From a virus, in the IMG/VR virus record IMGVR_UViG_3300038316_000118, positions 430 to 64,429 of that record: a stretch of 64,000 nucleotides of DNA. One strand, 5' to 3'. A program made the position numbers and the translations under genes. The notes below the pieces were generated by a model that saw nothing but the letters and a program-made list of their open reading frames with translations, did not search any database and was not told the DNA's origin. Shown here piece by piece: positions 1,960-7,591 of the stretch. Position 1 is the first letter of the stretch. Each line of letters opens with the position of its first letter.

Positions 1960-3018
1960 GTGAGTACAGTTACCGTTGAATATACCCCGCCTGAGCAGAT
2001 ACAGCGGTTCCGTGAAATGCAGGCTCTCCCATATCGGCTTAAGATTCCATATGCGATCGGGAAGGCACAGGAATTCTATGATACCTTGGACGGCAAAGTT
2101 TTCTGCAGCGTCGGGGGACTGGATAGTATCACGCTATTGAGGTTTCTCCGCAAATACGTTGATCCAGACATTCCTGGAATGACAATATCCAGTCTGGAGG
2201 ATAAATCTATTCAAAAAATACACCACCAGCTGGGTAATATGGTTTTTCTCAAGCCTTATAAGAGCAAGGTCCAAGTAATCCGTGAGCATGGATATCCGGT
2301 AATTTCAAAAGAAAAGGCCGGGAAGATTCAGCTGCTCCAGAACCCTACGGAGAAAAATGCAACGGTACGCCATGCCATCATGACTGGGGAGACAGGTGCT
2401 TATGGTGGGTACCGGAAGGGCACACGGATGAAACTGCCTCAAAAATGGTTAAACCTTTTTGGCGGCCCGGAAAATGCAAACTACGGGACCGACTATCAGA
2501 CAGCGCCATTCAAGGTTAGCCCTGACTGTTGCTATTACATGAAAGAAAAGCCGGCAGACGATTGGGCGAAAAAGAACAGGCTGCATCCGTATATGGGGCT
2601 TATGGCCAGCGAAGGAGGGCAGCGGGAAAAAGCGTTAATTAAAAATGGCTGTAATTACTATGGCAAAACGGTCACCCGGAGTTGCCCATTCGCAATCTTC
2701 AAGAGGCAGGATTTACTTCAGCTAGCGCTTGATATGGAGGTACCGGTGCCGGAGATCTACGGAGAGATAGCACGAGGCCCGGACGGTACCCTTCGGACAA
2801 CCATGGCACAAAGGACCGGCTGCACTATGTGCGGCTTCGGAATACACATCGAGAAACGCCCCCATCGTTTCGACCGTCTCAGGATAACCAATTACAAGGA
2901 GTGGAAATTCTGGATGTACGACATGGGCTGGGGCAAGGTTCTGGATTACATCGGGGTCAAATGGGAAGACGAGTATGTTCCCCCGCCCAAACAGGGCGAA
3001 TTACCGTTTGTTATTTAA
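1960..3018 (+). CDS. Phage PAPS-reductase-family (PP-loop) protein
   Basis: SVGGLDS PP-loop, CCYYMKEKP, RTGCTMCGFG. Confidence 0.8.
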   Translation: MSTVTVEYTPPEQIQRFREMQALPYRLKIPYAIGKAQEFYDTLDGKVFCSVGGLDSITLLRFLRKYVDPDIPGMTISSLEDKSIQKIHHQLGNMVFLKPYKSKVQVIREHGYPVISKEKAGKIQLLQNPTEKNATVRHAIMTGETGAYGGYRKGTRMKLPQKWLNLFGGPENANYGTDYQTAPFKVSPDCCYYMKEKPADDWAKKNRLHPYMGLMASEGGQREKALIKNGCNYYGKTVTRSCPFAIFKRQDLLQLALDMEVPVPEIYGEIARGPDGTLRTTMAQRTGCTMCGFGIHIEKRPHRFDRLRITNYKEWKFWMYDMGWGKVLDYIGVKWEDEYVPPPKQGELPFVI

Positions 3019-3032
3019 GGGGAGGCGATATA

Positions 3033-3485
3033 ATGGCAACCATAGCGGAGCTACTACGGGCCCGGAACCATATAGCCGTCTGGGAGCAGGAGCACGGCCG
3101 GGAAGCCACCACGGATGACTTAATGGTCATCCTGTATAACCAGAATGCAGAGGAGGCCCGGGAGAAACGGGAGTCCAAAAAGCGAAAGAGGAATAAGCCC
3201 CTCATTAAGCGCAAGGATTACCTAACCAAGCGGGACCGGGAATTCATCATCGTAATGGCCGCCTGCACCCAGGGGCTTCAAAACATCATAGACGAATGGC
3301 AGGAACATGACCAGAATCCGTTCCTGCTTCGTTGTTTAAGGACTGCAAATACCTGGATATATAAGGCCATGGAGTGGATGACCAAAGACCTGCTGGGGCG
3401 GGAGAAGATGAGCCTGCTCCGGCAGGCTGCTTATAACGAGGTTGGAATTATTGAGTACGAAGTGAGAAGAAGGGGGAAGGCATAG
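3033..3485 (+). CDS. Hypothetical protein
   Basis: GGGGAGG RBS, ATG at 3033, tightly packed in the operon. Confidence 0.65.
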   Translation: MATIAELLRARNHIAVWEQEHGREATTDDLMVILYNQNAEEAREKRESKKRKRNKPLIKRKDYLTKRDREFIIVMAACTQGLQNIIDEWQEHDQNPFLLRCLRTANTWIYKAMEWMTKDLLGREKMSLLRQAAYNEVGIIEYEVRRRGKA

Positions 3486-3486
3486 C

Positions 3487-4236
3487 ATGCTAAAAATGCT
3501 TGACCTCTTCTCCGGTATCGGCGGCTTCTCACTCGCCGCATCCTGGACAGGTGCGATAGAAACGGTGGCCTTTTGTGAGATAGAGCCATACTGCCAAAAG
3601 GTATTACAGAAGAACTTCCCAGGAATACTGATACACTCGGACATTACCAAGCTAAGGGGGGAGGACGTTGGAGCAGTTGACATTGTTTGCGGAGGATTCC
3701 CTTGCCAGCCTTTCAGCAATGCCGGGAAGCGAAGAGGCAAAGAGGATGACCGTTATCTCTGGCCGGAATTACTTAGGGTTATTGCCGAAACACACCCACT
3801 TTGGGTTATTGGTGAAAATGTTACTAGTCTGCTCAATCTGGGAATCGAGGAGATGTTACTTGACTTGGAAGATATCGGGTATCGGGGGGGGGTATTCCAA
3901 ATACCAGCTTCAGCAATCGGTGCCACGTTTGCCGGGGATAGAATTTATATCGTTGCCACGTCCCATAGCAAGCAATGCTATTGCTTGGGTGAGAACATCA
4001 AAATCAAACCCACGGCACAGTATCAAAAAATGCTTAGAGCGTGGAAGTCAGAATCAGGTAGTTTACCTTTGGATTTGGAAGGGTTTTTCGCCGATACAGG
4101 CCAGCGAATTGAACGAAACGATGATGGGCTTTCCGAGGGGTTGGACAGACTTAAGTGCATAGGAAATGCCGTAGTGCCGCAGGTGGTTTACCCGATATTG
4201 CAGGGGATTGTGGAGATAGAACGGAGGGATGCGTGA
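3487..4236 (+). CDS. C5-cytosine DNA methyltransferase, large (alpha) polypeptide
   Basis: Motif I DLFSGIGG, IV GGFPCQPFS, VI ENV, X GNAVVP; no motif IX in this frame. Confidence 0.9.
   Translation: MLKMLDLFSGIGGFSLAASWTGAIETVAFCEIEPYCQKVLQKNFPGILIHSDITKLRGEDVGAVDIVCGGFPCQPFSNAGKRRGKEDDRYLWPELLRVIAETHPLWVIGENVTSLLNLGIEEMLLDLEDIGYRGGVFQIPASAIGATFAGDRIYIVATSHSKQCYCLGENIKIKPTAQYQKMLRAWKSESGSLPLDLEGFFADTGQRIERNDDGLSEGLDRLKCIGNAVVPQVVYPILQGIVEIERRDA
3668..4162 (+). CDS. Nested out-of-frame ORF, probable methyltransferase beta subunit carrying motif IX
   Basis: TTG start behind a GGGGGGAGG SD; ends ETMMGFPRGWTDL, which resembles motif IX. Confidence 0.65.
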   Translation: MEQLTLFAEDSLASLSAMPGSEEAKRMTVISGRNYLGLLPKHTHFGLLVKMLLVCSIWESRRCYLTWKISGIGGGYSKYQLQQSVPRLPGIEFISLPRPIASNAIAWVRTSKSNPRHSIKKCLERGSQNQVVYLWIWKGFSPIQASELNETMMGFPRGWTDLSA

Positions 4237-4421
4237 TGGACGAGAAAAGGCGCTGCGGCACCTGCAAGTACTGGGTGCCTGAAACAAAAGGCATGGTGGC
4301 CCGGGCGAAAGCGAAGCAACCGTGGCCGCACTGCGGTATAAACGGGAAAACGAAGCTGGGGGACGACAAGCCCTGTCTGGCGTGGACCAGGAGGAAGGAG
4401 GAGAGTATTAAAGATGGCTAA
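4236..4421 (+). CDS. Small Cys-rich hypothetical protein
   Basis: TGATG stop/start overlap; CxxC. Confidence 0.55.
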   Translation: MDEKRRCGTCKYWVPETKGMVARAKAKQPWPHCGINGKTKLGDDKPCLAWTRRKEESIKDG

Positions 4422-6180: not shown

Positions 6181-6960
6181 TTGAACTCAGGGGCTTTTCT
6201 GGTAGCTAGGGATATATTTGAAAACCCTATATGGATCAATCCTACTGAATTTAGGATGTTTATTTTAATACTTGGGAAAGCCGCCTTTGCTGAAGAAGGG
6301 GTTAATGTTGGCAATATGCATATAAAAAAAGGCCAGTGGATTAGATCATATCGAAACCTACAGAGCGATTTAGAATATGTCGAAAATAATGCGGTTAAAC
6401 GTCCTGGACTTGCCACCATAGAGAGGACTGTTAAAAAACTGGTTAAGGATGGCCGTATCCTGGCTGAACCTTGTGAGCTCGGAACACTGTTTACAGTTGT
6501 TAACTACACTAAATACCAGGCTCTTGAGGGTTACAAGAAAGGTACTAGGAACACCGCGAGAAACAGCAGCGGAACAACAGCGGAACAGCAGCGGAACAAT
6601 AATAATAATGCTAATAATGCAGAAGAAGATATAAATATAAACAATAACCCCCCTATATCCCCCCAAGAGAAAATCAAGCACCTTGATTATGTCTATCTCA
6701 CCCCGGATGAGCATGAACGATTAGTCACCGAATTTGGGCATGAAGATACACAGTGGATGATTGAGCAGCTTGATATTTACATTGGGCAGAACCCTAAGAA
6801 AAATAATCGCTACACGGACCATAACCGCGCGCTCAGGGGATGGGTCAAAGAAAAACTGATACAGAAAAAAGAGGGTAAAGTTTCTCAGTTTAAGCCCAGA
6901 AACAGGAAGAGACAATCACAGCGAGAGGAGGAGACTGATTTTGGATTCCACAAGATTTAA
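6181..6960 (+). CDS. Phage replication initiator (replisome organiser)
   Basis: N-terminal winged-helix-like region, N-rich linker, C-terminal VYLTPDEHERL...YTDHNRAL; directly precedes the DnaC-like gene. Confidence 0.75.
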   Translation: MNSGAFLVARDIFENPIWINPTEFRMFILILGKAAFAEEGVNVGNMHIKKGQWIRSYRNLQSDLEYVENNAVKRPGLATIERTVKKLVKDGRILAEPCELGTLFTVVNYTKYQALEGYKKGTRNTARNSSGTTAEQQRNNNNNANNAEEDININNNPPISPQEKIKHLDYVYLTPDEHERLVTEFGHEDTQWMIEQLDIYIGQNPKKNNRYTDHNRALRGWVKEKLIQKKEGKVSQFKPRNRKRQSQREEETDFGFHKI

Positions 6961-7591
6961 TACCTGCTGGCAGTATTTCAATCCACCGCGCAGACTACAG
7001 GGCGCAACCTTTAATAGCTATATACCCAAATGCGGCTCTCAGCAGGCGGCTTTAGAAACCTGCCGGACATATTCCACAGATGACATCAAAACAGGCCGGG
7101 GATTGCTGCTTATAGGTACCTACGGTACAGGTAAAACCCATCTAACGATAGCGACGGTGCGGGCGTTGATGGAAACTGCACCTGATTTATTTGGGGTGCG
7201 GAATGATTCACAAACGCTCTACGACCCTACCAGAGAGGACTACCGGGGCTTATATTGCTCGTTCTTTCCGGTAATGGAACTCTTGGACGCATGGCGGCCG
7301 GGAAGCGAAGCAAAGAAGCAACGAGGAGAGTGGCTATTTCACCGGGCCAAGACTGATGATCTGGTTGTCCTGGATGATATAGGGGCCGAAAAGGCAACTG
7401 AATGGACGGAAGATAGGCTTTATGCCGTAGTAGATGCCAGATATCGCATGGAGAGGGCAACGATATTCACCACCAACAGCAGCGAAAAGGACTTACTAAG
7501 CAACGGCTACGGCAAAATCGTTTCCCGTATGTTTGAAATGACGGATCCGGTACCCGTCACTGGCCCCGACCACCGGAGAAAACGCGCATGA
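6941..7591 (+). CDS. DnaC/IstB-like helicase loader ATPase
   Basis: Walker A GTYGTGKT, Walker B LVVLDDIG, TIFTTN, SRMFEM. Confidence 0.85.
   Translation: MDSTRFNTCWQYFNPPRRLQGATFNSYIPKCGSQQAALETCRTYSTDDIKTGRGLLLIGTYGTGKTHLTIATVRALMETAPDLFGVRNDSQTLYDPTREDYRGLYCSFFPVMELLDAWRPGSEAKKQRGEWLFHRAKTDDLVVLDDIGAEKATEWTEDRLYAVVDARYRMERATIFTTNSSEKDLLSNGYGKIVSRMFEMTDPVPVTGPDHRRKRA

Follow-up and report, generated by a model that had tools for sequence, protein, structure and literature searches.

Does a short phage methyltransferase gene encode one protein or two? The question is raised by a putative cytosine-5 (C5) DNA methyltransferase gene, here called alpha, at positions 3487-4236 of the window that we analysed, which comprises 64,000 bases of a 64,923-base IMG/VR virus record with a completeness rating of 100%. 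A second open reading frame (ORF), beta, lies wholly within alpha at 3668-4162 in the +1 frame and overlaps it by 495 nucleotides (nt). A first-pass annotation of this DNA had proposed a methyltransferase split between the two frames in the manner of M.EcoHK31I. Our analysis indicates that the locus very probably encodes a two-subunit C5 DNA methyltransferase from two frames of one DNA stretch. As judged from aligned sequences, both frames were shown here to be open and conserved, and the segment of alpha between motifs VIII and X is an unconserved linker, selection on its bases acting in the beta frame. Heterodimer formation, catalytic activity and an anti-restriction role are what we infer for the products.

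The two overlapping reading frames

The alpha gene encodes 249 amino acids (aa) from an ATG start codon, and a Shine-Dalgarno-like purine-rich run, AAGGGGGAAGG (3470-3480), stands 6 nt ahead of this codon. All alpha and beta features described here are on the plus strand. The product matched Pfam PF00145 over residues 2-181 (2.7e-41; 142.5 bits against a cut-off of 22), TIGR00675 (5.7e-34; 118.2 bits against a cut-off of 100.65) and, end to end, phrog_363 (1.2e-69 over residues 1-246). Residue invariance was judged in alignments of 25 sequences, that is, the alpha or beta of the window and 24 relatives. Motif I (LFSGIGG, 3505-3525) is present with L7, F8, G10, G12 and G13 invariant. Motif IV (GGFPCQ, 3691-3708), which contains the catalytic Cys73, belongs to a stretch that reads GGFPCQPFS, and the beta frame reads EDSLAS over the motif. 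Motif VI (ENV, 3814-3822) has E110, N111 and V112 invariant. A variant of motif VIII, GATFAGDRIYIV (3919-3954), keeps the last arginine, R152, and motif X (IGNAVVP, 4159-4179; G226 and N227 invariant) starts at the last bases of beta. The signature residues of motifs I, IV, VI and X were invariant among the aligned alpha chains and aligned with M.HhaI. The alpha frame therefore holds motifs I, IV, VI, VIII and X of a C5 methyltransferase and no motif IX, as the first-pass annotation had stated.

What alpha lacks can be placed more exactly. The PF00145 match spans profile positions 1-187 of 324 only. A profile of alpha and its 24 relatives aligned with residues 12-177 of M.HhaI (E = 3e-35) and weakly with its motif X (residues 299-318). 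No counterpart of M.HhaI residues 178-298, which comprise the variable region and motif IX, was found in alpha by this profile comparison. Alpha is thus not a polypeptide that carries the variable region and motif IX along with the other motifs.

The beta frame is closed upstream by a TAA at 3653-3655, and TTG 3668 is therefore the first possible start; the 164-aa beta chain probably begins there. A Shine-Dalgarno-like run, GGGGGGAGG (3656-3664), precedes it with a 3-nt spacer. The ribosome-binding site and TTG that had been noticed earlier are thus present, and the part of that claim that is less secure is the start itself. The N-terminal half of beta overlaps alpha motifs IV-VIII, and its C-terminal half consists of the variable part and the putative motif IX. 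The ORF ends in ELNETMMGFPRGWTDLSA, of which MMGFPRGWTDL is the motif-IX-like part, so the resemblance that had been pointed out is real. Over this end (4106-4153) the beta frame reads ELNETMMGFPRGWTDL and the alpha frame reads NDDGLSEGLDRLK. E150, M153, G154, P156, W159 and T160 are invariant, and the pattern E-x3-MGFPxGWT is nearly so. Beta was matched by phrog_1008 ('DNA methyltransferase'; 9.4e-18) and by eight metagenomic proteins whose ends resemble LNPxFVEWLMGFPxGWTD.

The beta of the window is one of the shortest encountered. One LPRPIAS segment takes the place of the repeated WPTP segments, and SPIQASELNE stands before MGFP where GGQLNPEWVEW is usual. These features are common to the related loci L007 and L165 and to Lactobacillus phage Lc-Nu. 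No longer protein containing residues 90-164 of this beta was found, which is weak evidence, and tblastn of beta against plasmids returned only dcm genes of Bacillus, Paenibacillus and Lacticaseibacillus, and nothing from plasmids of E. coli.

Conservation and selection in both frames

The chance of an open second frame was estimated with the alpha protein held fixed. Synonymous codons were redrawn from the codon usage of the phage or the codons of the gene were permuted, with 20,000 trials in each of the two schemes. The stop-free +1 run in the alpha gene is 168 codons long. Reshuffled genes had runs of 48-53 codons on average and 146 at most, and 168 codons were reached in none of the 20,000 trials of either scheme. 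The +2 frame of alpha is open for just 33 codons.

Searches of IMG/VR and GTDB genomes with alpha retrieved 80 viral loci and 80 genomic ones, spread over many phyla; their identity to alpha is 32-59%, two identical viral contigs excepted. The large majority have motifs IV and X in one frame and MG[FY]PxGWT in the next frame, and in many of them the latter motif starts exactly 38 nt ahead of motif X. A set of 100 related loci has motifs I, IV and X together in a single ORF. Each of them also has a +1 ORF covering motif IV, 152-374 codons in length (median 237), and all 100 have a motif-IX-like end near motif X; 87 of these ends fit the strict pattern and 13 are variants (GHT, GHS or EWS, for example). 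The expectation that homologues keep both frames was borne out. Alpha alone is annotated in the majority of the loci seen. A literature search found no published survey of nested phage methyltransferase genes, which does not exclude that one exists.

Start signals recur at the corresponding place. In many Clostridia-type loci AAGGAG precedes an ATG by about 7 nt, 38 nt upstream of motif IV, and another group of relatives has GAAAGGAA before a TTG at the position of the beta start. These sequences point to a conserved internal start signal, with TTG starts apparently common in the nested methyltransferase family.

Three observations on individual relatives were made in passing. In L009, L015, L031, L047, L076, L081 and others the +1 ORF starts 4 nt after the alpha start codon, and L009 carries two ORFs of near-equal length (242 and 236 aa) on the same DNA. 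The closest named phage relative is Lactobacillus phage Lc-Nu (L002; NC_007501, 1299-2084), where only the alpha frame is annotated (ORF40), followed by a second methyltransferase gene (ORF41); its nested +1 ORF of 182 codons, ending in MMGFPKGWTDLKH, has no annotation. L004 was considered as a counter-example and rejected, being a frame-broken copy without motif I.

Selection was measured as mean pairwise identity per codon position in a codon alignment of 20 non-redundant alpha genes. Identity at alpha position 3 was 0.33 both before and after the overlap. Inside the overlap it was 0.53 over motifs IV-VIII (Mann-Whitney p = 1e-15 against outside) and 0.64 over motif IX (p = 2e-8), and it shifted sharply at both edges of the nested ORF. 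In columns matched for high amino-acid conservation the values were 0.57 inside and 0.34 outside (p = 2e-10). Since alpha position 3 is beta position 2, raised identity at this position is what a second coding frame would be expected to produce.

Between motifs VIII and IX a different pattern was found. Identity in the alpha frame was at background there, about 0.33 at all three positions, and the alpha residues were low-complexity and unalignable. The last third of beta, read in its own frame, has an ordinary coding pattern with position 3 the least conserved. Over beta residues 95-145 the window differs from L007 by 22, 22 and 35 changes at beta positions 1, 2 and 3, and from L165 by 11, 12 and 24. 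Over beta residues 1-75, differences from the same two loci fall mainly at beta position 2, which is alpha position 3. These codon-position patterns indicate a division of labour between the frames. Over motifs IV-VIII alpha dominates and beta adds constraint; over the variable part and motif IX beta dominates, and alpha is a linker that needs only to stay open. The variable, target-recognition part thus appears to be read in the beta frame and not in the alpha frame. Near the 3' end of the overlap, one run of bases gives MGFPxGWT when read in beta and, when read in alpha, the conserved sequence G-[ILV]-P-x-R-V-D-R-L-K that precedes motif X. By these codon comparisons both frames are shown here to be under purifying selection. 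The first-pass estimate that about 500 bp are dual-coding agrees with the 495-nt overlap and with the constraint on synonymous alpha sites exactly within it.

Closely related contigs were also compared. A variant phage, seen in contigs of runs X5 and X9 from other fermentation metagenomes (window 3489-4400), differs by 10 listed substitutions within the 179 nt that precede the overlap and by a single one within the 495-nt overlap itself (Fisher p = 1e-5); the latter is silent in beta and alters alpha. Because these contigs are unrelated to the window upstream of 3489, a recombination edge at the 5' end of the gene may be behind part of this skew. Contigs from four studies cover the methyltransferase gene without any insertion or deletion. 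The two frames, and a run of nine G residues inside the overlap (3884-3892; RGG in alpha, GGG in beta), are therefore not assembly errors.

Predicted assembly and alternative readings

In the mechanism that we propose, alpha would be the catalytic and S-adenosylmethionine (AdoMet)-binding core with motifs I-VIII and X. Beta, translated from its own ribosome-binding site and TTG start, would supply the DNA-recognising variable part and motif IX. Probably unstable in fold when alone, beta would pack on alpha, up against motif I, the strand of motif VIII and the helix of motif X, and would so restore the usual two-lobed enzyme. The enzyme would most likely methylate the phage's own DNA against host restriction, because no restriction gene was seen beside the locus.

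Structure prediction supports the binding of alpha and beta but is no demonstration of it. The predicted alpha-beta complex scored 0.90 and the best of three controls 0.00; the score mark used was reached by 58 of 80 solved complexes and by 2 of 110 mismatched pairs. Three runs agreed in at least 93% of contacts, with a partner pLDDT (predicted local distance difference test) of at least 78. Beta residues 148-163, the motif-IX end, are predicted to contact alpha residues 11-16 (the motif I loop), 39-43 and 230-231 (motif X), and beta residues 76-81 to pair with alpha residues 136-139 beside motif VIII. Beta residues 42-83 lie within the predicted interface. Beta alone was poorly folded (pLDDT 34 beside an unrelated partner; AlphaFold2 mean pLDDT 56.7 and predicted template modelling score 0.28), which fits a chain that folds on alpha. 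The model also places side by side two strands, alpha 136-139 (VFQI) and beta 78-81 (KYQL), that are encoded by the same bases (window 3892-3910).

Natural fusions offer a further view of the two modules. A profile search for longer proteins returned mostly long beta-type chains without a Pfam domain. P0060 (541 aa; L167, 868-2493) has an alpha-like part at residues 3-253 (hhalign 99.9%, E = 3e-37) and a beta-like variable part with motif IX at residues 396-541 (97.7%, E = 2e-12), so that motifs I-VIII and X are followed in one frame by the variable part and IX. This fusion supports a functional partnership of alpha and beta modules. Over the alpha part of its gene the +1 frame is interrupted and survives in stretches of 66-82 codons. 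P0060 also provides one negative control, an instance of alpha-type sequence that by itself does not keep the +1 frame open. A gene for a Vsr repair endonuclease lies after it. Two further proteins were seen. In P0042, motifs I, IV and VI are followed by a beta-like middle part, which contains WPTP repeats and motif IX, and this in turn by motif X, whereas VIII is missing; P0062 has motifs I-VIII followed by WPTP repeats and motif IX, and is without X. Both may be real variants or frameshifted calls.

Several points weigh against a two-subunit methyltransferase. Beta, alone or as a 25-sequence profile, had no significant match in Pfam, NCBIfam or PDB sequences, and the label 'motif IX' for its end rests on a short pattern and on predicted contacts. 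Translation of beta in the phage is something we infer from the sequence, none of the public RNA runs is listed as containing the stretch, and the spacing of 3 nt between GGGGGGAGG and the TTG is short. The count of 100 loci in 100 is conditional on an intact alpha, and about four other loci (L004, L075, L116 and L130) are frame-shifted. The complex score may come from the likeness of alpha and beta to solved single-chain C5 methyltransferases known to the model, because the two are halves of an enzyme that elsewhere is a single chain with solved structures. Finally, motif VIII of alpha is without the Gln and the first Arg, so the activity of the enzyme would not be assured.

The last point leads to the alternative that both chains are made and that this copy is catalytically weak or dead, either decaying or repurposed, for example as a DNA-binding protein. 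Motif VIII of the window reads F-A-G-D-R, with two of the three signature residues of Q-x-R-x-R replaced, whereas the majority of relatives have H-R-R-[DE]-R and M.HhaI has Q-K-R-E-R at the aligned place. Nevertheless, the form F-x-G-[DE]-R is shared with L027, L060 and L165, loci that are otherwise very different, and the last Arg does not vary. What had been described earlier as a partly degenerate motif (GATFAGDR) is therefore better called a variant common to several loci. Both frames are open in L027 and L060 (L165 is frameshifted at its G run), the window has kept the catalytic Cys, ENV, motif I, motif X and the last Arg, and the contigs from four studies keep both frames free of indels. 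A weak or dead copy is unlikely on this evidence.

It is quite improbable that alpha is a self-sufficient short methyltransferase and beta a conserved accessory, such as a specificity modifier or a regulator. The end-to-end alignment with phrog_363, the presence in alpha of every motif that touches AdoMet or the target base, and the poor fold of beta by itself (pLDDT 56.7) would agree with such an enzyme. Against it, nothing in alpha equals the small domain of M.HhaI (residues 178-298), the VIII-X segment of alpha is unconserved, and the fused protein P0060 retains a beta-like module. The alpha chain of M.EcoHK31I is inactive when alone (PMC2836561).

The locus could also yield one polypeptide through two programmed frameshifts, or be a doubly frameshifted pseudogene of an ordinary methyltransferase. 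Two switches of frame would give the canonical order I-VIII, IX, X, the G run lies in the overlap, and L165, L004, L116 and L130 are frame-shifted. However, the alpha frame is open across the variable part in nearly all loci despite its unconserved residues. Upstream of any point at which a switch would be useful, the beta frame is open for about 90 codons; these are under extra constraint, and the frame has its own Shine-Dalgarno sequence and start. Motif IX and the residues before motif X share bases, so no single reading holds both. No conserved slippery site was found; the G run is 7 in L007 and is absent in the majority of relatives. We regard either form of double frameshift as highly improbable. 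That beta is a non-coding shadow of alpha, open through codon bias or chance, is barely credible: some of its conservation must be inherited, its N-terminal half overlapping the most conserved part of alpha, yet no reshuffled gene among 20,000 kept the frame open, the +2 frame runs for only 33 codons, all 100 loci retain the +1 ORF, the codon pattern of the beta frame prevails over the variable part and motif IX, and the tandem-fused P0060 has no open +1 frame.

The G run deserves separate mention. L165 has its frameshift at precisely this run (about 1200-1215), and the called protein, P0001, joins an alpha N-terminus with motifs I-VI to a beta C-terminus. An error of assembly, a copy that is dead or slippage could account for this frameshift. 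It seems rather unlikely that the run of the window is a slippage switch that makes phage methylation phase-variable. If it were, the loss of one G would fuse alpha 1-135 to beta 76-164 and truncate the beta frame, so that one homopolymer would turn both subunits off together or yield a third, fused product. L165 carries that alpha-beta fused reading at the same run.

Genomic setting and known systems

The source of the locus is a complete 65-kb phage, whose replication and modification genes surround alpha and beta. A helicase in fusion with another DNA-methyltransferase-like domain (13-1947; phrog_16 and phrog_67) and a gene resembling 3'-phosphoadenosine-5'-phosphosulfate (PAPS) reductase (1960-3018; phrog_424) lie upstream, and therefore the phage has more than one DNA-modification gene. 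A DnaD-like loader (6181-6960) and a DnaC-like loader (6941-7591) were also found. No restriction endonuclease was seen among the scanned neighbour genes of alpha, and an orphan phage enzyme is therefore the best reading of the methyltransferase at 3487-4236. The TGA stop of alpha overlaps the ATG of the next ORF in TGATG (4234-4238), and this overlap suggests translational coupling of alpha with that ORF (4234-4421), which encodes a small Cys-rich protein of 61 aa without a PHROG match.

Long same-strand overlaps in which both frames code for conserved, interacting parts of an enzyme are rare, and gene callers overlook them routinely. Nested genes of this kind, which is widespread and under-annotated, are read as ordinary short methyltransferases, and the subunit that probably sets specificity is hidden. 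Alpha cloned alone would likely be a dead enzyme, and methylome predictions for phages with such genes would be wrong. With a 164-aa beta and a complete phage genome, the window offers a compact and clean example, suited to the study of two-frame co-evolution and of split-methyltransferase assembly.

Natural C5 methyltransferases made of two polypeptides are known. In M.AquI (CYCGRG) the split falls inside the variable region, and motifs IX and X are on the small subunit (PMC3404938). The locus of the window is very probably a two-polypeptide case as well and is not of the M.AquI type: its genes overlap fully and motif X is on alpha. Compared with the single-chain M.HhaI (PDB 1MHT), alpha is without an equivalent of residues 178-298, which beta apparently supplies in trans. 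The nested layout is also found in Paenibacillus larvae phages, and for Paenibacillus phage Rani (NC_029084) GenBank annotates a 'g50 internal gene' (gp50/gp51). Their beta chains are longer (234 aa in Rani), with repeated WPTP-type segments; the alpha and beta of the window match phrog_363 and phrog_1008.

The system closest in description is M.EcoHK31I. Lee, Kam and Shaw reportedly gave lengths of 309 aa for its alpha and 176 aa for its beta in 1995; the chains of the window have 249 and 164 aa. M.EcoHK31I of E. coli HK31 is a 5'-YGGCCR-3' modification methyltransferase of two polypeptides, of which beta is encoded wholly in a different frame of the alpha gene and bears motif IX, whereas alpha has motifs I-VIII together with X, as well as the target-recognition domain (PMC2836561, PMC3404938). 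Protection was full with alpha and beta together, and no methylation resulted from an alpha gene in which the start of beta and its Met codons 17 and 26 had been silenced (PMC2836561). The window agrees with this layout, known to us by description, in every testable feature, and the parallel drawn by the first-pass annotation is upheld to that extent: beta lies inside the alpha gene in another frame and has a motif-IX-like end, and alpha has the other motifs. The beta of the window has internal Met codons at 18 and 27, the same spacing as 17 and 26, which is the one hint of sequence homology to M.EcoHK31I. N-terminal deletions of M.EcoHK31I beta weaken association (PMC2836561), and residues 42-83 of the window's beta are in the predicted interface.

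Differences were also found. The gene of the window belongs to a phage replication module near which no endonuclease was seen, and blastn of 3640-3960 against complete E. coli genomes gave no match. The literature puts the predicted target-recognition domain of M.EcoHK31I in alpha, whereas the variable part of the window is selected in the beta frame; of the differences, this is the one of substance. A target-recognition part carried on beta throughout the family, contrary to the published description of M.EcoHK31I, is more probable than the slippage switch considered above. The nested alpha/beta layout has been known since 1995, and the locus described here is a well-supported further case of it.

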